A DNA stretch of 64,000 nt, from NCBI GenBank assembly GCA_050049775.1, contig JASFVP010000005.1, positions 32,896 to 96,895 of the forward strand. The letters are read 5' to 3'. Source of the DNA: Chromatiales bacterium. GTDB lineage: Bacteria > Pseudomonadota > Gammaproteobacteria > Chromatiales > Chromatiaceae. Under the pieces are notes generated by a model. The model searched no databases and was not told where the DNA came from. It was given only the letters and a program-made list of their open reading frames with translations. This document shows, piece after piece, positions 34,546-49,055 of this stretch; position 1 is the first letter of the stretch; every line of letters starts with the position of its first letter. A program made the translations under genes and the position numbers.

Positions 34546-34854
34546 ATGATTCCAGGTGAAATAATTGCCGCTGACGGCAACATCGAACTCAATGCCGGTC
34601 GTGAGACGATCAGCGTGCAGGTGGCCAATACCGGTGACCGGCCGATCCAGGTCGGTTCGCATTATCATTTTTACGAAACCAACAGCGCGCTTGAATTTGA
34701 TCGCGAGGCAAGCCGGGGCTTTCGCCTGAACATTGCCGCCGGTACGGCGGTGCGCTTCGAGCCGGGGCAGACGCGTGAAGTCGAGCTGGTCGCTTACGCC
34801 GGCGATCGCAAGGTGTTCGGTTTTAATGGCAAGGTCATGGGAGAACTCGACTGA
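34546..34854 (+). CDS. ureB: Urease beta subunit
   Basis: 102 aa starting MIPGEI...GR.....[12 protein letters not shown], the canonical UreB. Confidence 0.9.
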
Positions 34855-36557
34855 TGGCAACGATTGGCAGACAGGCTTATGCCGAAATGTACGGCCCGAC
34901 CACCGGCGACCGGGTGCGCCTGGCGGACACCGAGCTGTTCATCGAGGTCGAAGAAGATCGCACCGTGTATGGCGATGAAGTCAAGTTCGGCGGCGGCAAG
35001 GTGATTCGCGATGGCATGGGACAAAGCCAGCGTGTTGCGGCCGAAGTCATGGATGTGGTCATCACCAATGCGCTGATTTTGGATTGGTGGGGTATCGTCA
35101 AGGCGGACATCGGCATCAAGAACGGCCGCATCGCCGCCATCGGCAAGGCCGGTAACCCGGACGTGCAGCCCGGCGTGGACATCATTATCGGCCCGGGCAC
35201 CGAGGCGATTGCCGGTGAGGGTCAGATACTGACGGCTGGCGGTATCGATTCACACATTCATTTTATCTGCCCGCAACAGGTCGAAGAGGCATTGATGTCG
35301 GGCGTGACCACCATGCTGGGTGGCGGCACCGGACCGGCGACCGGCACCAATGCGACCACCTGTACGCCCGGTCCGTGGAACATCCACCGCATGTTGCAGG
35401 CGGCGGACGAGCTGCCGATGAATCTCGGTTTCCTCGGCAAGGGCAATGCCTCGCGGCCGGATCCCCTGTCCGAACAGATTCGTGCCGGTGCGATCGGCCT
35501 GAAGCTGCACGAGGACTGGGGCACCACGCCGGCGGCCATCGATAACTGCCTGACGGTGGCGGAAAACTTTGATGTGCAGGTCGCGATTCATACCGATACC
35601 CTGAACGAATCGGGTTTTGTTGAAGACACCCTGGCTGCGATGGATGGCCGCACTATTCACACCTACCACACGGAAGGCGCCGGTGGCGGGCATGCTCCGG
35701 ACATCATCAAGGCGGCCGGTTACGATAATGTGCTGCCGTCATCGACCAACCCTACGCGGCCTTACACGGTCAACACGGTCGATGAGCATCTCGACATGCT
35801 GATGGTCTGCCATCACCTGAGCCCGTCCATCGCCGAGGATGTCGCCTTCGCCGAATCGCGCATCCGCCGTGAAACCATCGCCGCGGAAGACATCCTGCAT
35901 GACTTGGGCGCGTTTTCCATGATTGCTTCGGATTCACAGGCCATGGGCCGCGTTGGCGAGGTGATCACACGCACCTGGCAGACGGCGCACAAGATGAAAG
36001 TCCAGCGGGGCGCATTGCAGGGCGACAGCAAGGATGCCGATAACCAGCGCGCCAAGCGTTATGTCGCCAAGTACACCATCAACCCGGCGCTCGCGCACGG
36101 CATGTCGCATGAAGTCGGCTCGGTAGAAGTCGGCAAGCTGGCCGACCTGGTGTTGTGGAAACCGGCTTTCTTTGGCGTCAAGCCAAGCCTCATCATCAAG
36201 GGCGGCATGATTGTCGCCGCGCCCATGGGCGATGCCAATGCTTCCATCCCGACACCGCAACCGGTGCATTATCGTCCCATGTTCGGCGCACTCGGCGGCG
36301 CGCGGCATGCCACCAGCGTCACCTTCATGTCACAGGCGGCCATTGCTGATGGCATACATCAGCAACTTGGTCTGCAATCGTTGATCCGTCCGGTGAAAGA
36401 GTGTCGCAGTGTGCGCAAGAAAGACATGCTGCTGAATAGCTATCAGCCCGTCATTGAAGTGGATGCGCAAACCTACCAGGTGCGCGCCGACGGTGAACTC
36501 TTGACCTGCGAGCCGGCGGAAGTGTTGCCCATGGCGCAACGTTACTTTTTGTTTTGA
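34854..36557 (+). CDS. ureC: Urease alpha subunit
   Basis: 567 aa; Ni-ligand histidines and carbamylated-Lys region ([10 protein letters not shown]); MVCHHL motif. Confidence 0.95.
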
Positions 36558-42653: not shown

Positions 42654-42679
42654 AAGTGGGCCGGAGCCCCGGCCCACTT
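42654..42679 (-). terminator. Hairpin terminator at the 3' end of rtcB
   Basis: Perfect AAGTGGGCCGG-AGCC-CCGGCCCACTT stem-loop overlapping the rtcB stop, followed on the minus-strand transcript by AUUUUCAAC. Confidence 0.55.
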
Positions 42680-43877
42680 AACCTTTGATGCACACTACCT
42701 GTTTCAGGCTGTGTACGACTTCGACCAGATCGGTCTGGTTTGCCATTACCGTATCGATATCCTTATAGGCGCCCGGGATCTCATCGATGACCCCTTTGTC
42801 CTTACGGCATTCGACACCCTGTGTCTGGTTTTCCAGGTCGGACTGGTCAAACAGCTTCTTGGCTTTGGTCCTGGACATGACCCGTCCGGCACCATGCGAG
42901 CAGGAGCAGAATGAATCCGCGTTGCCCTTGCCACGCACAATGTAGGAGCGGGCGCCCATGGAGCCTGGGATAATGCCAAGTTCACCTTCACCCGCACGGA
43001 TGGCACCTTTACGTGTGACATAGACATCAGCGCCAAAGTGGTGTTCGCGTGCCACGTAGTTGTGGTGGCAGTTGATCGCTTCTTTGGTGATGCTGAATGT
43101 CGGCAGGTAACGTGCCAGCGCATCCAGGATCAGACGCATCATTTCACGCCGGTTGGTCATGGCGTAGTCCTGTGCCCAGCCGACGGCTTCGACATAGTCA
43201 TCGAAGTACTGTGCACCTTCAGTGAAGTACGCCAGGTCTTTATCAGGCAGGTAGCCGAGCTGGTCTCCCATGTCGTGCTTGGCCAGGTTGATAAAGTAAC
43301 GTCCGATGACATTGCCGATGCCACGTGAGCCCGAGTGCAGCATGACCCAGACGGCATCGTTTTCATCGAGACAGATTTCGATGAAATGGTTGCCGCCACC
43401 CAGCGATGCCAGTTGCCGTATCCAGGTTTCGTAAGAGCGCTGACGCTGCATCTTGCGAATACCCGGGTGCTTGTCGTAAATCACCTCCAGCGTTTTGGCC
43501 AGTGGGGTGATGGTGGAACGCTTGACCGGGTCCTGACGGTGCATGTCAAAGCCGACCGGAATGGCCTGCTCGATGCGACTACGCAGTTGCCTCAGGCTGT
43601 CCGGCAGTTGCGCGGCGGTCAGTGAAGTCCGAATGGCATTCATGCCACAGCCGATGTCGACACCGACGGCCGCCGGCACGATGGCACCCCGGGTCGGGAT
43701 TACCGAACCCACGGTGGCACCGATACCGGCATGCACGTCCGGCATGGCGGCAACGTGATGATGCACAAACGGCATCTGTGAAACATTTGCCAGTTGGTCC
43801 AGCGCCTTGGACTGGGTGTCTGTCGTCCAGATATGGACCGGCACCTTGCCCTTGTTGAGGGTTTGTAGAATAGGCAT
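42678..43877 (-). CDS. rtcB: RtcB-family RNA 3'-phosphate/5'-OH ligase
   Basis: 399 aa; metal-ligand His/Cys motifs of RtcB (HNYV, GSRG, HGAGR) and the HFIEI...LHSGSRGIG region. Confidence 0.85.
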   Translation of the reverse strand: MPILQTLNKGKVPVHIWTTDTQSKALDQLANVSQMPFVHHHVAAMPDVHAGIGATVGSVIPTRGAIVPAAVGVDIGCGMNAIRTSLTAAQLPDSLRQLRSRIEQAIPVGFDMHRQDPVKRSTITPLAKTLEVIYDKHPGIRKMQRQRSYETWIRQLASLGGGNHFIEICLDENDAVWVMLHSGSRGIGNVIGRYFINLAKHDMGDQLGYLPDKDLAYFTEGAQYFDDYVEAVGWAQDYAMTNRREMMRLILDALARYLPTFSITKEAINCHHNYVAREHHFGADVYVTRKGAIRAGEGELGIIPGSMGARSYIVRGKGNADSFCSCSHGAGRVMSRTKAKKLFDQSDLENQTQGVECRKDKGVIDEIPGAYKDIDTVMANQTDLVEVVHSLKQVVCIKG

Positions 43878-43887
43878 AGTGAATTCC

Positions 43888-44838
43888 TTATTGCAATGTT
43901 AGTTGATAAAAGTGTGGTGCAAGCTTTGCACGCCGCAGTCGTTTGTGTGTACGTTTGTTGTTGAGAAAACCGGGCATGCTGTCGGTCTCATCAAAACAAA
44001 ACTGCCGTGGCAGGCGAGTGTATAAAGATCTGGGCGGCCCATACTCACGGTTGATACGTTTCAGGCAGTTGCCGGTTTCCCAGCTGTGGTACCAGAGACG
44101 GTCGATGCCCAGTTCATGCCGCACAAAATCAATGACGGCCGACAGCATGGCCTGGCTCCAGTCTTTCAGCAGCGGTTCGACAAACTGCAGATAGGCTTTT
44201 GCCTGCTTTACCGTTGTGTCGTAGCGGCAGCTGAGAATGTTGGCGTCATTATCCTTGTAGTACGTTAGTCGACGCTGTAAGCGGGCGACATCCCTGACCC
44301 AGTCACTCTGGATTTCCTCGACCAATACCTCATCGTTGTCGAGATCGACATCCAGCCGTGCCCAGGCCAGGGTTTCACGGTAGTAGTGCCGCTCACCACG
44401 CCGTAACTGCGGATGACCGCCGTAATTAAACACACCATCGCGCTTTGGCTTGATGGATGTGCTCAGTATGTGATCATGCTGATGATTGAAGTTAAGGTGC
44501 AACACCAGGTTGTAACCGGGTCTTGATGTCTGGGTGTAACGGCCGGATTTACTTCCCCAGAGACCGGCGGTGACCAGGTAGGTAACGCCGGGTTCCAGCC
44601 AGTACTGGCTGAACAGATCCGGATCAATGCGGCCATTGCCGCAGTTGTGTATTAACTGCTTGATGCCCGGCCTGTCCAGCAGCTTGCCGAAGCCGGATGT
44701 TTTGATGTCGCGAATACTGCTATAGCGTTGCGTGGCCAGCTGCAGCAATTGCGCCGCATAACGATCACGGCAATAGCCGTAAAGACTGCGCTCTTTAGGC
44801 AGACAGTCGAGTAACTCCTGTGCATAGTGTAGTTCCAT
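43888..44838 (-). CDS. Hypothetical protein (316 aa), co-operonic with rtcB; contains a K-x-D-G motif
   Basis: 10-bp gap to rtcB. No family recognised by eye. SIKPKRDGVF resembles nucleotidyltransferase/ligase motif I (KxDG); this is speculative. Confidence 0.5.
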   Translation of the reverse strand: MELHYAQELLDCLPKERSLYGYCRDRYAAQLLQLATQRYSSIRDIKTSGFGKLLDRPGIKQLIHNCGNGRIDPDLFSQYWLEPGVTYLVTAGLWGSKSGRYTQTSRPGYNLVLHLNFNHQHDHILSTSIKPKRDGVFNYGGHPQLRRGERHYYRETLAWARLDVDLDNDEVLVEEIQSDWVRDVARLQRRLTYYKDNDANILSCRYDTTVKQAKAYLQFVEPLLKDWSQAMLSAVIDFVRHELGIDRLWYHSWETGNCLKRINREYGPPRSLYTRLPRQFCFDETDSMPGFLNNKRTHKRLRRAKLAPHFYQLTLQ

Positions 44839-44972: not shown

Positions 44973-46115
44973 TCAGGCATTGATCCTGATGGTGTCCTTA
45001 AGCACGCCATCGAGACCGCCGAAGACAGTCAGACGATCCACCTTGTCGGTTACCTTTTCGAGTGTTTCCAGCTCTTTCAGGCGTAGCAGGGTGGGGTTGT
45101 CGTCCATCAGTTTGGCGGTGTTCAGCAGCGAACGGGTCGCGGCGGTTTCTTCACGCCGCTTGATGACATTGGCCTGGGCAGCTTTTTCTGCCTGCACCAC
45201 CTGGTTGAGAATATCCTTCATCTCACCGGGCAGGATAATGTCCTTAAGACCGACACTGCTCAGCACAAAGCCATGCTCGGAGGCGTTGGCCGCAACCTGG
45301 TCAAACACCTCGCGGTCTACGTGCTGCTTGTCTTCCAGCAGCTTGTCCAGGTTACGGGTACCGACGGACTGCCGCAGCGCAAACTGCAGCTCGCGGTAAA
45401 TCCAGTCCAGCGGCTTCTGCAGTTGTGCACGTGCTTTCACCGGGTCCTGCACCTGGTACTGGGCCGCCAGATTCAGCCGCAGCGAGACCTTGTCACGGGT
45501 CAGGATTTCCTGGCCCTGGACTTCCATCGCCTGGATACGGGTATCCAGCTGCTCTACGCAGACGTGCCGTTTTACCGACCAGAAGGCGTGGAAGCCCGGT
45601 TTCAGGGTCTGCACCAGCTCACCATCCACCAGCAGCAGGCCAACGAAGTGATCCATGACTTCAGTGCTGTAGACATAAGGCGACAGCTCACGGGCCACAG
45701 CACCACCGTTGCCACGGAACACGGCATCCGACAGCGCTGCAGGTAGCTGCAGCTCATGCTGGATATCGATGCGATCCACACGCAGACGGTAAGGCACTTT
45801 CCAGTAAACCTTGTGCTGACCGGGCGCCAGCAGCTCAATGAAGCTCTCGTCACGGTAAACCAGGCCGATCTGGTTATCCGCCATGATGACGGTTTCCAGG
45901 TGTGCCTCAAGCAGTTTGCCGGCTGACTTCATCAGGACTTCGGCGTTACGGTTGCTGCAGACCGCCTGGCCCAGGTCGTGCAGCTCAGGCTGAATACGGC
46001 CCAGCGGGTCAAAATAACGGTAGACGCCGGGCTCCAGCACCCTGGTGAGCTGACGATCCCGAAACAGCAAACCGCGCTCGTGCTGGGCCACAACGATGCG
46101 CTTGTAACCAAACAT
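44973..46115 (-). CDS. SPFH/band-7 (stomatin/flotillin/HflKC-like) domain protein
   Basis: 380 aa; SPFH core and a C-terminal coiled-coil region (KAAQANVIKRREETAATRSLLNTAKLMD...) typical of band-7 proteins; no TM anchor seen. Confidence 0.75.
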   Translation of the reverse strand: MFGYKRIVVAQHERGLLFRDRQLTRVLEPGVYRYFDPLGRIQPELHDLGQAVCSNRNAEVLMKSAGKLLEAHLETVIMADNQIGLVYRDESFIELLAPGQHKVYWKVPYRLRVDRIDIQHELQLPAALSDAVFRGNGGAVARELSPYVYSTEVMDHFVGLLLVDGELVQTLKPGFHAFWSVKRHVCVEQLDTRIQAMEVQGQEILTRDKVSLRLNLAAQYQVQDPVKARAQLQKPLDWIYRELQFALRQSVGTRNLDKLLEDKQHVDREVFDQVAANASEHGFVLSSVGLKDIILPGEMKDILNQVVQAEKAAQANVIKRREETAATRSLLNTAKLMDDNPTLLRLKELETLEKVTDKVDRLTVFGGLDGVLKDTIRINA

Positions 46116-46198: not shown

Positions 46199-46351
46199 GC
46201 TCCCTCTCCCCTGAGGGAGAGGGTTGGGGTGAGGGTGTGTTCAGCGTTATTCAACCCTCACCCTGGCCCTCTCCCAAGCTTGGGAGAGGGGACAGTCAGC
46301 CGCATGTCGATCCATTCGGCTATTTGAAGCCACCGGCTCATAGCCGGTGGA
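46199..46351. repeat. GC-rich palindromic repeat, copy 4, with perfect tail hairpin
   Basis: Same core (GCTCCCTCTCCCCTGAGGGAGAGGG...CCCTCTCCCAAGCTTGGGAGAGGGGACAG) plus tail CCACCGGCTCATAGCCGGTGG. Preceded by a GGGGATCAGAAAATCCCC-TGGTTTT terminator-like hairpin. Confidence 0.7.
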
Positions 46352-46611
46352 ATGCGTACTGCCTTTGCGAAATACACTCTTGAGTGCACTTCGAAAAGGC
46401 GCAGCCTCACACGGAAAACGCGGACCTGGACGGTCTGTCGAAGCGGGCCGGACAGCGGTCACTGCACTCCGGTCTTCAGTCACATGGATAATCGGAGATG
46501 AGTGATGGCTGTTTGGCTGGCTGCGGCAGACAGCGCCGGGTGCGGGCATTAACTGTGCTGCAGGACGGCATGCGAAATTCCGTTTCCACAACCTGCAGAG
46601 GCTTTGCCAAG

Positions 46612-46730
46612 GGATATAACTGCGGATTCGAACCGCGGGCCGGTAGGCCTTAACCAAGTGAGGATAAGAGGATTTGAACCTCTGACAGATCGAACCAATG
46701 TCGATTGCTCTCCCAAACTGAGCTATATCC
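46612..46730 (-). pseudogene. Chimeric tRNA-like element, 119 nt, with two T-arms (pseudo-tRNA / att-site remnant?)
   Basis: Minus-strand read: GGATATA-TA-GCTCAGTTTGGGAGAGC-A-ATCGA-CATTGGT-TCGAT-CTGTC-AGAGGTTCAAATCCTCT-TATCCTCA, then a second T-arm GCGGTTCGAATCCGC-AG-TTATATCC. The 5' GGATATA pairs perfectly with the distal TATATCC, but only 5 of 7 with the proximal strand. Anticodon loop would read UUG with an atypical A33. Confidence 0.3.
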
Positions 46731-46915
46731 ATGGCGTCATCACAAATGATCAGGTGCGGTACACCAGATTGCAGGGCAACAGGGTGCCAGCGGGTTATAT
46801 CGAAACCCGGCCACGGTCACATGAACACTTATTGAAGACAAGACACACCCGCCAGGTATCGAACCCGGGCGGGTGAAATAAAGTTCACTACTGATGCTGA
46901 TACAGCAGCATAAAC

Positions 46916-47156
46916 TGGTGGGGACGGTGAGATTCGAACTCACAGGGAACTGGGTCCTGGGAACCCCTGATTAATTCTGGACGAAGCAGATTGAGCTCGA
47001 AAATATCCAGATTCAAGGCGTCAATCGCACGTAATAGCCCAGCTATTGCGAAGATTGATAACGCAGAAGCTGGGTATTTTAAGCACAAGATGCGAGTTCA
47101 TGAATTGGTCAGGGGTTCCCTAGGCCTGCCGCGTCTGCCAATTGCGCCACGTCCCC
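46916..47156 (-). ncRNA. Atypical ~240-nt tRNA-like RNA: tRNA-Leu-like acceptor/D-arm plus T-arm and encoded CCA, with the anticodon arm replaced by a 12-bp helix enclosing 139 nt
   Basis: 5' GGGGACG-UG-GCGCAAUUGGCAGACGCG matches a class-II tRNA-Leu 5' part. 3' GUGAGUUCGAAUCUCAC-CGUCCCC-A-CCA. The acceptor strands GGGGACG/CGUCCCC are perfectly complementary. Internal GGGAACCCCUGA...UCAGGGGUUCCC is a perfect 12-bp pairing. No tmRNA-type tag frame found. Confidence 0.4.
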
Positions 47157-47359
47157 GAAACAACTGGCTTCAATACAGCCTGATGCTGCGTGATCCGCTG
47201 GGCATGACAGATCGCCAGCAGAATTTTCGGATGTGCCCGGTTCATTGCGACTCCATGACGAAGGAACCAGCGCGCATTGGTGTGTGTGCCGCTGCGGCGT
47301 GCTACAGGCAGCTGCATATCCTGTATCGCGTTTTCAAACTTGATGCGTTCAGTCGTCAT
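47120..47359 (-). CDS. Hypothetical small protein (79 aa) with strong RBS
   Basis: ATG preceded by GAAGGAGGTAACC (AGGAGG, 5-nt spacer). Starts MTTERIKFENAIQDMQLPVARRSG. Its 3' end overlaps the tRNA-like RNA by 37 nt. The longer track ORF (TTG at 47515) would run through tRNA-Lys and is rejected. Confidence 0.3.
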   Translation of the reverse strand: MTTERIKFENAIQDMQLPVARRSGTHTNARWFLRHGVAMNRAHPKILLAICHAQRITQHQAVLKPVVSGTWRNWQTRQA

Positions 47360-47404
47360 GGTTACCTCCTTCTGGCAGTCGTAAAAAGTGACATGTTGAA
47401 AATG

Positions 47405-47480
47405 TGGCAGGTCACGCAGGATTCGAACCTGCACCTTTCGGCTTAAAAGGCCGATGTGCTTGCCATTACACCAGCGACCT
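47405..47480 (-). tRNA. tRNA-Lys (anticodon UUU), CCA encoded
   Basis: Cloverleaf fits the canonical model: acceptor AGGTCGC/GTGACCT (one G-U), D-arm GTGT/GCAC, anticodon stem TCGGC/GCCGA, loop CTTTTAA, T-arm GCAGGTTCGAATCCTGC identical to the E. coli tRNA-Lys T-arm, discriminator G, then CCA. Confidence 0.8.
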
Positions 47481-47488
47481 GAAAAGGG

Positions 47489-47590
47489 CTGACAGGGCCG
47501 GAATCGAACCGGCAAAAAACCGTGGCCGTCTCACAGAGTGATGCAGACTTGCAGTAATCCGGTTCCGCCAACCATGGCGTACCTGCCAAA
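47489..47590 (-). other. tRNA-like 3' element (T-arm GCCGGTTCGATTCCGGC, ~99-nt possible tRNA-Sec-like or degenerate tRNA), unresolved
   Basis: Canonical T-arm followed by CCTGTCA-G with no CCA. A possible 5' partner TGGCAGG lies 99 nt upstream and a 5-bp D-stem CGCCA-TGGT-TGGCG is present, but no convincing anticodon arm could be folded by eye. Confidence 0.3.
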
Positions 47591-48085
47591 TGATCCGGCC
47601 TGAACGACCGGAATCGGTGCGGCGGGAGTCCGGTAATCCATTCCCCCTGGCACTGCAACGCTGCGCTTACTCGTGATGTCAAACACTGGCTCGAACAGCG
47701 TTACTACCTCTTGTCCCTGGCGGTAACCGATCTGCTGGCAGCCATTTCCGGCCCGTAGCCGAAAACACGGGGATGAGGCTTGCCTGGTATTAGCCCCAGG
47801 CGGCCTGATGTTCATACCCTGCCGACTGCACTGACGGATCTCCGGCTCATCCTTCCCGCTGACCCGATAGGCGACTCAATCCGCAACCCTCGGGCACACA
47901 GGCGCGGCTGCGCAATAGCGCGCAGAGATATGTCATGCAAGACATGTCGCTCCGGCTAACGGCAGGTTATCCGGTTTGCAGGCACGACTTGCATGCTGGC
48001 CATAATCCACTTTTTGGATGCGGCCAAAGATTTGATTCCACATTGTTAAAGAGCATGCCGGAGCTTGCTCCGGCTGTCCGGGGCA

Positions 48086-48119
48086 ATAAAAAACCCCCGG
48101 GGTTTTCACCAACCGGGGG
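48086..48119 (-). terminator. Rho-independent terminator (minus strand) downstream of the 48183..48380 ORF
   Basis: CCCCCGG-GGTTTTCACCAA-CCGGGGG (7-bp stem) followed on the minus transcript by UUUUUUAUU. An adjacent GCCGGAGC-TT-GCTCCGGC hairpin lies at 48056-48073. Confidence 0.5.
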
Positions 48120-48182
48120 TTATGGCCTTCCGGAAAGTGTCAATTCTTAAAGACACCTTCCTGCAACAATGTGGAGAAGGCG

Positions 48183-48380
48183 TCAGTTCATATCAGGTTT
48201 TGTCTCATCGCAGAGGTTGCACAGGGTCATGCTGTGTTTGCCCGGCAGATGCTTGAAATACAGGCGCACGAGTACGTCCTGCCTCACTTGCAAGGCAGCA
48301 AACGTATCAATGTTGTAGTTCGCTATGGATGGCACTGTTGGCTCCTGTAAAAAATAAAAGAAAGGTTTCCCTCTCAACAT
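48183..48380 (-). CDS. Hypothetical small protein (65 aa), divergent from the XRE regulator
   Basis: ORF only; the cro/cI-like divergent arrangement with the downstream HTH regulator is the main support. Confidence 0.3.
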   Translation of the reverse strand: MLRGKPFFYFLQEPTVPSIANYNIDTFAALQVRQDVLVRLYFKHLPGKHSMTLCNLCDETKPDMN

Positions 48381-48410: not shown

Positions 48411-49055
48411 ATGCAAGAAAGAATTTTGCAAATGACAAAAAAAAATTCAGGTGTATCGAGACAGAAAGATCCGGTGGCGGTCAAGATCGGCAAGCGCATT
48501 GCCCAGGCGCGCAAGATGTCCGGCTTCAAGACGGCACGCGAATTTCGTCGCAAGCTGCCGCGCTGGCCGGAGAACCGGCTGTCCTGGTATGAAGCCGGTT
48601 ACTCGATGCCGCACCCCAATGATGTTGAAACCATTGCCAGACTGACCGGGACTTCGGCCTGCTGGATCATGTTCGGACTTGGACCGATCCGTTCCGGTGA
48701 ACGAGACCTGCAAGCCGTACGCCATCAGAACCTGGTGTACCTGTTTCAACAGGCCAGCGACGATTCCGCACAAAGCGGCACGGATTTCTTGCTGGCATTA
48801 AAGCTTGAAGCCGGACAGCTGGCTGAATACATCGATAACCCTTTCAAGCACATTGGTGAACGCCTGGCGCGAAGTATTGAAAAGGCTGCCGGCCGTTCGC
48901 GTAAATGGCTGGATGAGCAGCATGTCGAGTCCGATGGACTCTGTGGTTCCTTTCCGGATGATTTGCGTGAACTTATGACCATTTACTCAGAGATGGATGA
49001 CAAGGGGCGGGACATGCTGGTGGCGATGGCTCGCACATTGGCGGAACGCATCTAG
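48411..49055 (+). CDS. XRE-family (cI-like) HTH transcriptional regulator
   Basis: N-terminal HTH_XRE-like VKIGKRIAQARKMSGFKTAREFRRKL plus a C-terminal domain; 214 aa. Confidence 0.65.
   Translation: MQERILQMTKKNSGVSRQKDPVAVKIGKRIAQARKMSGFKTAREFRRKLPRWPENRLSWYEAGYSMPHPNDVETIARLTGTSACWIMFGLGPIRSGERDLQAVRHQNLVYLFQQASDDSAQSGTDFLLALKLEAGQLAEYIDNPFKHIGERLARSIEKAAGRSRKWLDEQHVESDGLCGSFPDDLRELMTIYSEMDDKGRDMLVAMARTLAERI

Follow-up and report, generated by a model that had tools for sequence, protein, structure and literature searches.

Probable interruption of an accessory tRNA-Leu(UAG) gene at its anticodon by a palindromic MITE in a Chromatiales bacterium

Introduction

Several families of palindromic MITEs (miniature transposable elements with inverted repeats) have been described in bacteria, among them Correia/NEMIS in Neisseria, ERIC/IRU in enterobacteria, RUP, and the QMITEs of Coxiella (PMC10969869). 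Here we describe a 160-bp non-autonomous MITE which very probably splits a 77-nt accessory tRNA-Leu(UAG) gene at the anticodon, in a 64,000-nucleotide stretch of DNA from a Chromatiales bacterium (GenBank assembly GCA_050049775.1, contig JASFVP010000005.1, positions 32,896 to 96,895; this whole stretch is referred to as the window and positions are counted from its first letter). The family to which the element belongs shares with the known palindromic MITEs a length of 100-200 bp, terminal inverted repeats, a short target duplication, the lack of a transposase and the presence of many copies, as well as the long hairpin formed when transcribed and the existence of deletion derivatives. It differs in its termini (GGAACCTCTGAT) and in its hosts, which are Gammaproteobacteria of marine sediment. 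A further difference separates it from the Correia elements, which duplicate TA whereas this family duplicates a 4-bp YTAR target.

Three other kinds of system are relevant to the locus. Group I introns in tRNA anticodon loops, such as that of the cyanobacterial tRNA-Leu(UAA), resemble it in the site of insertion, in the identity of the tRNA and in the intact arms. The window insert differs in having terminal inverted repeats and target duplications and in occurring at many sites that are not tRNA genes; at 160 nt it is also too small for such an intron, as an earlier note made from the letters of the window had judged of an insertion that it put at 139 nt, and the Intron_gpI covariance model gave no match at E<=10 in 46500-47600. 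Bacterial Y RNAs of the YrlA type are encoded in rsr-rtcB operons (PMC4201824; bioRxiv 10.1101/312249), and they likewise combine tRNA-like modules with proximity to rtcB. The differences are in topology, in the lack of a Ro60 gene among the neighbours scanned in the window, in the lack of conservation of the composite, and in the nature of the tRNA part, which belongs to a genuine family of tRNA genes whose members in relatives bear a Leu anticodon. Finally, the cyanobacterial tRNA gene arrays known as L-arrays are co-located or co-regulated with rtcB (PMC8421152). Accessory tRNA genes near rtcB are common to both, up to 18-20 lying upstream of the homologous operon at two of the related loci (L040 and L054), although the hosts here are Gammaproteobacteria and the cluster in the window is short. 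The terms 'SPFH', 'Band 7' and 'DUF' are absent from the text of PMC8421152, and the partner genes seen in the window (SPFH, GNAT-like 316-aa and ~57-aa) were not found there.

Empty sites in related genomes

The clearest evidence for an insertion comes from comparison with relatives. Eighty related genomic loci (given here by L numbers) were fetched through alignment of the family of a 316-aa protein encoded close to the element, and the element was compared with them by BLASTN. In six close relatives (L001, L004, L007, L010, L012 and L015) there is an uninterrupted gene of 75-77 nt in which nt 1-37 and nt 201/213-241 of the element are matched at 87-97% and stand side by side. ARAGORN calls these six genes tRNA-Leu(UAG) or tRNA-Leu(CAG), in agreement with the tRNA-Leu-type 5' half recognised in the earlier note, and they are situated ~2.2 kb upstream of the orthologous 316-aa gene, the position that the element occupies in the window. 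In a multiple alignment the orthologs read GGCTTAG directly followed by ACCCTG, and the window reads GGCCTAG followed by 160 nt, CAGG and ACCCAG. The junctions therefore define a 164-nt insertion, made up of the 160-nt element and 4 nt, exactly at the anticodon.

Deletion in silico of the MITE and the 4 nt on its right gives a 77-nt cloverleaf that ARAGORN identifies as tRNA-Leu(UAG), in which position 33 is C and not U and the anticodon stem contains a single A-A mismatch; it is only after this excision that a canonical cloverleaf with a 7-nt anticodon loop is recognised. The right duplication (CAGG) has drifted, as has the anticodon stem on its 3' strand, while the arms of the acceptor, D and T type have remained intact. 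At two positions where the orthologs have a G-U pair the window tRNA has G-C. An assembly artefact is unlikely, since the spacing of 2296 nt between the helix-turn-helix (HTH) and SPFH genes that flank the region is found again in an independent JGI contig; a Logan contig from a second assembly stops short of the tRNA region.

In the intact orthologs (e.g. L004:5777-5853) both the anticodon (UAG or CAG) and the D-arm are of the Leu type, but the variable loop has only 5 nt. This is atypical because bacterial tRNA-Leu is normally a class II tRNA with a long variable arm.

Structure of the interrupted gene

The tRNA-like feature is on the minus strand, with the 5' end of the RNA at 47156 and the 3' end at 46916, giving a length of 241 nt. 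In the RNA sense it begins GGGGACG-TG-GCG-CAATTGGCAGA-CGC-G-GCAGG-CCTAG, after which comes the insert, and it ends CAGG-ACCCAGT-TCCCT-GTGAG-TTCGAAT-CTCAC-CGTCCCC-ACCA. The acceptor strands GGGGACG and CGTCCCC pair at 7/7 positions with ACCA next, and the acceptor pairing, Leu-type D-arm, T-arm and CCA reported in the earlier note are all present on this strand. The same note described an insertion of 139 nt bounded by a perfect 12-bp helix. The arms of this helix, GGGAACCCCTGA (RNA nt 37-48, 47120-47109) and TCAGGGGTTCCC (nt 187-198, 46970-46959), are indeed fully complementary, but 138 nt and not 139 lie between them, and the helix is composed of the terminal inverted repeats together with one base of the duplication. 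Beyond these arms the inverted repeat continues imperfectly, to arms of 44 nt with 70% complementarity, and the insert is 68% identical to its own reverse complement over 165 nt. The predicted fold of the 241-nt RNA has an energy of -97.1 kcal/mol (z = -5.87 against shuffled sequences). Perfect inverted repeats of 12 nt that fall within 200 nt are not in themselves rare, simple arithmetic giving an expectation of ~0.8 in 64 kb; that the present one is not due to chance follows from the extended palindrome and from membership of a repeat family. The window copy carries a T:A to C:G change that is matched in both terminal repeats, as it is in the L133 copy.

In its default mode ARAGORN made no call on the interrupted element and reported only tRNA-Gln(UUG) at 46658-46732 and tRNA-Lys(UUU) at 47405-47480 in the window, both on the minus strand. 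With its intron options it forced a 'tRNA-Pro(AGG) with 145-nt intron' and a spurious tRNA-Trp inside the insert; both were rejected as artefacts because the orthologs place the junctions elsewhere. A search for tmRNA with the same program found neither a tmRNA nor a tag frame at the element, which bears out the earlier statement that no tag frame is present. The clean tmRNA or intron hit that the note had proposed to look for did not emerge, as the Rfam models of tRNA (RF00005), tmRNA, Y RNA and the group I intron all failed to match the element, both at the gathering threshold and at E<=10.

The MITE family

The insert is one member of a mobile repeat family. Public metagenome contigs were scanned for the conserved 20-nt terminus CCAGAATTAATCAGRGGTTC, which is present in at least 120 of them, and among the matches listed most are from marine sediment. 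Many of those listed lie ~100 nt from a contig end, a position to be expected because repeats break assemblies. A scan of viral contigs for the terminus gave 0 matches. In all, 93 copies bounded by both termini, GGAACCTCTGAT…ATCAGAGGTTCC, were collected. The most frequent length is 150-169 nt (63/93 copies), a variant of 220-229 nt is represented by 9 copies, and short deletion derivatives retain both ends. Identity between the window copy and 58 other copies of full length spans 57-87%. Homologs of ~70% identity are present in L029 and L039, in the opposite orientation and between rtcB and the 316-aa gene, with a partial one in L038. The family gave no match in Rfam, plasmid or phage records: blastn of the consensus against plasmids found only a 47-nt stretch in Cupriavidus and Ralstonia plasmids, and neither megablast against phages nor blastn against E. 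coli genomes gave an informative match.

The flanks of these copies reveal how the element inserts. The adjoining 4 nt conform to YTAR (TTAA, TTAG, CTAA or CTAG) on the left in 73/93 copies and on the right in 68/93, and the two flanks are identical in 53/93. A duplication of TA alone, as in IS630/mariner-like elements, was considered and dropped in favour of a 4-bp duplication: the last flank base is equal in 87/93 copies and the first in 75/93, and these bases are complementary in only 52/93. Outermost bases that are equal and not complementary argue for a duplication of 4 bp rather than for TA with a longer repeat. Several clusters of 4-7 copies that are >=96% identical lie in unrelated flanks, each copy with its own YTAR duplication, which is direct evidence of transposition. 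The family thus has the features by which MITEs are recognised, namely a small size without a transposase open reading frame (ORF; 160 bp), terminal inverted repeats, a target-site duplication typical of the family, many near-identical copies at unrelated loci, and a site that is empty in relatives. It is apparently an abundant and undescribed family of marine-sediment Gammaproteobacteria.

An alignment of 30 diverse copies (including L083:3669-3828, L096:719-877 and L133:2464-2622) forms one long hairpin of 54 pairs, 28 of them with compensatory changes, and includes one invariant U-G pair. Such covariation implies that selection acts on the structure of the element, as DNA or as RNA, and not on its termini alone. 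Excision in silico of 90 copies produced a tRNA across the junction in the window copy only (1/90), and recurrent targeting of tRNA genes by the family was ruled out on this count.

Interpretation and alternatives

What the comparisons establish is an insertion event at a site that is empty in the orthologs, by a member of a mobile repeat family that duplicates its target. The accessory tRNA-Leu(UAG) gene belongs to a small tRNA cluster upstream of an operon encoding an SPFH protein, the GNAT-like 316-aa protein and RtcB. A MITE very probably inserted there in IS5-like fashion, at a YTAR tetranucleotide which it duplicated, and landed on the anticodon itself because the loop of tRNA-Leu(UAG), C-TTAG-AC, contains the preferred target. 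If transcribed, the palindrome would prolong the anticodon stem into a long imperfect hairpin of ~70 bp in place of the loop, and so produce the succession of acceptor, D-arm, long helix, internal domain, T-arm and CCA. The hairpin structure of the MITE also explains the perfect helix described in the earlier note, and the low folding energy. With the 7-nt anticodon loop gone a decoding tRNA would no longer be made, and this accessory tRNA gene has most likely been inactivated. Its transcription would yield a tRNA-like dead-end precursor, which RNase P or 3' processing might trim and whose hairpin might be cut by double-strand-specific RNases. The alternative offered in the earlier note, a MITE with terminal inverted repeats of ~12 bp within a tRNA-Leu gene, is borne out by the repeat family and the empty orthologous sites. 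That note had expected a simple disrupted pseudogene to be betrayed by copies of the insert elsewhere and an intact tRNA-Leu paralogue; in essence this is what was observed, since the insert is repeated elsewhere and intact tRNA-Leu counterparts exist, as orthologs in sister genomes.

The parentage suggested for the family is that of IS5 (IS5 family, IS5 group), which has a documented 4-bp YTAR target duplication (PMC5009759). The length and consensus of the duplication are the same in IS5 and in the MITE family. There are also differences, as the MITE lacks a transposase gene between its repeats and its termini begin GGAAC whereas IS5 begins GGAAGGTG. The only candidate for an autonomous parent between paired termini, L177 (1040 nt), was rejected as a parA-like gene beside a MITE.

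Several observations weigh against this account of the locus. The 1.8 Mb of DNA fetched and the plasmid and phage records yielded no transposase-bearing parent with the MITE termini, and for this reason it is the target signature by which the family is suggested to be IS5-like. The right duplication of the window copy is degenerate (CAGG against CTAG). The window contains one copy only and its closest relatives are 87% identical, which gives no sign of recent mobility in this particular genome. The acceptor stem and the D- and T-arms have stayed perfect, so that the RNA may still be processed to some extent or put to some use, the loss of function being itself a reading of the sequence. Moreover the gene for RtcB, a ligase of the tRNA-splicing type, lies 3 kb downstream and on the same strand.

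This last point raises the question of splicing, in which an endonuclease would excise the 164-nt insert and the RtcB encoded downstream would rejoin the halves. The presence of rtcB in the same gene cluster and on the same strand, the intact acceptor, D and T arms with an encoded ACCA, and an insert in the anticodon loop, the usual site of tRNA introns, are all what such an arrangement would predict, and if it were true this would be a protein-spliced intron in a bacterial tRNA. The insert, however, bears the hallmarks of a DNA transposon in its terminal inverted repeats and target duplications, six orthologs lack it, and the other 89 excised copies show no tRNA at the insertion site. Precise removal would give a tRNA with C33 in place of U33 and with A opposite A in the anticodon stem. 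There is no match to a group I intron model, and no splicing endonuclease gene was seen among the neighbours. RNase III leaves 5'-P/3'-OH ends, which are not substrates of RtcB, and its cleavage of the long hairpin would thus give ends unsuited to rejoining by this enzyme. Splicing is accordingly regarded as a highly improbable explanation. Scarcely credible at all is a dedicated non-coding RNA that mimics a tRNA in the manner of tmRNA, Y RNA or YrlA, with the long helix and internal domain as functional modules; the earlier note had likened the topology to that of tmRNA or Y RNA. The predicted fold is strong (z = -5.87), and an RNA-repair ligase is encoded nearby, as for Salmonella YrlA (PMC4201824). 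Against these stand the failure to obtain a tmRNA call, a tag frame or an Rfam match (E<=10), the identity of the supposed internal domain as a mobile repeat, and the restriction of the composite to one genome, relatives having a plain tRNA. In addition, YrlA has its free ends in the Ro-binding stem and a closed acceptor-like stem, the opposite of the topology seen here, where the RNA ends form a tRNA acceptor stem, and a Pfam scan of ten neighbouring ORFs found no Ro60/TROVE domain. The reading as a tmRNA, Y RNA or YrlA mimic is therefore largely refuted.

An insertion by a MITE could also have been followed by exaptation, the tRNA-scaffolded hairpin RNA now acting as a decoy, sponge or regulator in the RtcB-linked tRNA cluster. 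The tRNA body is perfectly paired, two pairs that are G-U in the orthologs being G-C in the window, tRNA-like genes of atypical form are already found in the cluster, and the family hairpin is structurally constrained (28/54 pairs with compensatory changes). This covariation, though, belongs to the family everywhere and not to this locus, the composite occurs once and has no conservation in its support, and the degraded duplication and stem mismatch look like neutral decay; exaptation is very improbable. A role for the composite in the living cell, whether through cutting of the MITE hairpin at its base and re-ligation of the halves by RtcB or as a decoy RNA in an RtcB-centred response to tRNA damage, is very unlikely, although under re-ligation the MITE would be a de facto protein-spliced intron of a bacterial tRNA. 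The interruption of an accessory tRNA-Leu(UAG) gene by a MITE is thus preferred.

The rtcB-linked neighbourhood

The features of the interrupted gene, the adjacent operon and the related loci are collected in Table 1.

Table 1. Coordinates of the interrupted tRNA-Leu gene, the inserted MITE and associated features (window positions unless an L number is given)
Feature	Position	Strand	Remarks
tRNA-Leu(UAG) gene, 5' part (RNA nt 1-37)	47120..47156	-	89-92% identity to nt 1-37 of six intact genes; contains acceptor 5' strand, Leu-type D-arm, anticodon-stem 5' strand GCAGG, loop C-CTAG
Left target-site duplication CTAG (anticodon UAG and loop base before it)	47120..47123	-	orthologs TTAG or TCAG
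MITE, 160 bp, imperfect palindrome end to end	46960..47119	-	missing at six orthologous sites
Left terminal inverted repeat GGAACCCCTGAC	47108..47119	-	family consensus GGAACCTCTGAT
Right terminal inverted repeat ATCAGGGGTTCC	46960..46971	-	family consensus ATCAGAGGTTCC
Right target-site duplication CAGG, degenerate	46956..46959	-	CTAG or TTAG expected; from alignment
tRNA-Leu gene, 3' part	46916..46955	-	87-97% identity to ortholog 3' parts; starts with loop AC, anticodon-stem 3' strand CCAGT (one A-A mismatch), 5-nt variable loop
T-arm GTGAG-TTCGAAT-CTCAC	46943-46927	-	
Acceptor 3' strand	46926-46920	-	
ACCA	46919-46916	-	
Empty tRNA-Leu site without insert (synthetic sequence)			…GGCAGGCCTAGACCCAGTTCC…
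RtcB	42678-43877	-	
316-aa protein	43888-44838	-	GNAT-like
SPFH/Band-7 protein	44973-46115	-	
Small ORF, 79 aa	47120..47359	-	strong AGGAGG ribosome-binding site
HTH regulator	48411-49055		divergently transcribed
tRNA arrays upstream of operon	L040:4008-6037, L054:2452-6412		also L022, L056, L057, L063, L064, L069
Homologs of tRNA upstream of SPFH gene	L001:6331-6404, L004:6284-6356, L007:6332-6404, L010:1601-1675, L012:3842-3914, L015:5688-5759, L003:7143-7215		
~57-aa family members	L040:5143-5376, L054:3826-4053, L056:4654-4857, L022:1979-2167		also L019, L025, L061

A protein with 100% identity to the 316-aa protein is encoded in a metagenome-assembled genome of a Chromatiales bacterium. 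Homologs number in the hundreds, and those of Candidatus Thiodiazotropha and further sulfur-oxidising Gammaproteobacteria are the closest. The 316-aa gene is adjoined by rtcB on the same strand in 56/80 loci, and is accompanied by SPFH in 21/80 and by the divergent HTH gene in 19/80. Searches of PADLOC, NCBIfam and PHROGs returned nothing for the 316-aa and the small proteins, and a PDB sequence search was also empty. The 79-aa ORF has a C-terminal extension that runs into the 5' half of the tRNA-Leu gene, its stop codon being the TAG of the anticodon and left target duplication. Its N-terminal ~57 aa represent a conserved family of small proteins, with the motif F..LI..M.VP..R….N..W….NR..PK, whose genes are embedded among the tRNA genes of arrays.

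Many of the related loci have tRNA genes upstream on the same strand. Arrays of them are found directly upstream of SPFH, 316-aa and rtcB genes in distant Gammaproteobacteria, with 18 tRNA genes in L040 and 20 in L054, and resemble the rtcB-linked cyanobacterial L-arrays (PMC8421152). The tRNA directly upstream of the SPFH gene (46658-46732, minus strand) is one homologous gene with a nearly invariant body across genomes and an anticodon that is UUG (Gln) in the window and CAU, UUA (ochre), UUU or UUC elsewhere. The acceptor stem has mismatches at its first two pairs, and the gene does not encode CCA. It may represent a tRNA-like RNA of hypervariable anticodon tied to the RtcB operon. Pieces resembling tRNA fragments were also noted on the minus strand at 46840-46877, 46785-46812, 46622-46645 and 47489-47589. 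Among them CACCCG-CCCGGGTTCGATACCTGG-CGGGTG resembles an acceptor/T-arm minihelix, others are T-arm-like hairpins standing alone, and there is a weak match of the tRNA-Sec type (24 bits, below threshold). These pieces suggest that the tRNA cluster is atypical or in decay.

A conserved candidate RNA of ~135-150 nt (47806-47657, minus strand) separates the tRNAs from the divergent HTH regulator. RNAalifold on 11 sequences gave 40 pairs, 12 with compensatory changes; there was no Rfam match, and the covariance model matched only the window and 11 Thiodiazotropha/Sedimenticolaceae-like loci. Upstream of this candidate a 65-aa ORF (48183-48380, minus strand) is followed by a strong, terminator-like GC-rich hairpin and U-run (48085-48120, minus strand), conserved in related loci. 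REP-like palindromes, CCCTCTCCC…GGGAGAGGG and GGTGAGGG…CCCTCACC, occupy 46200-46290 (minus strand) just upstream of the SPFH gene. Elsewhere in the window the Rfam 5' ureB small RNA model matched at 35004-35289 (minus strand, 130 bits), inside a 567-aa plus-strand ORF (34854-36557); this most likely reflects conserved urease coding sequence antisense to the model and not a small RNA gene.

Significance

A tRNA-Leu(UAG) gene interrupted by a MITE is a common kind of genomic accident and not a new class of RNA. The interruption itself, in which a transposon would have knocked out an accessory tRNA gene, has little import, although it illustrates that a palindromic MITE, once inside an anticodon loop, can pass for a structured tRNA mimic of a new kind, and it documents a MITE family that targets YTAR and whose hairpin covaries strongly. 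Of greater value is the context, a conserved rtcB-linked module with accessory tRNAs and an anticodon-variable tRNA-like gene. The same module includes an unannotated GNAT-like partner of RtcB, an SPFH protein, a ~57-aa protein and a covarying upstream RNA, and is a candidate tRNA-damage or tRNA-repair system.
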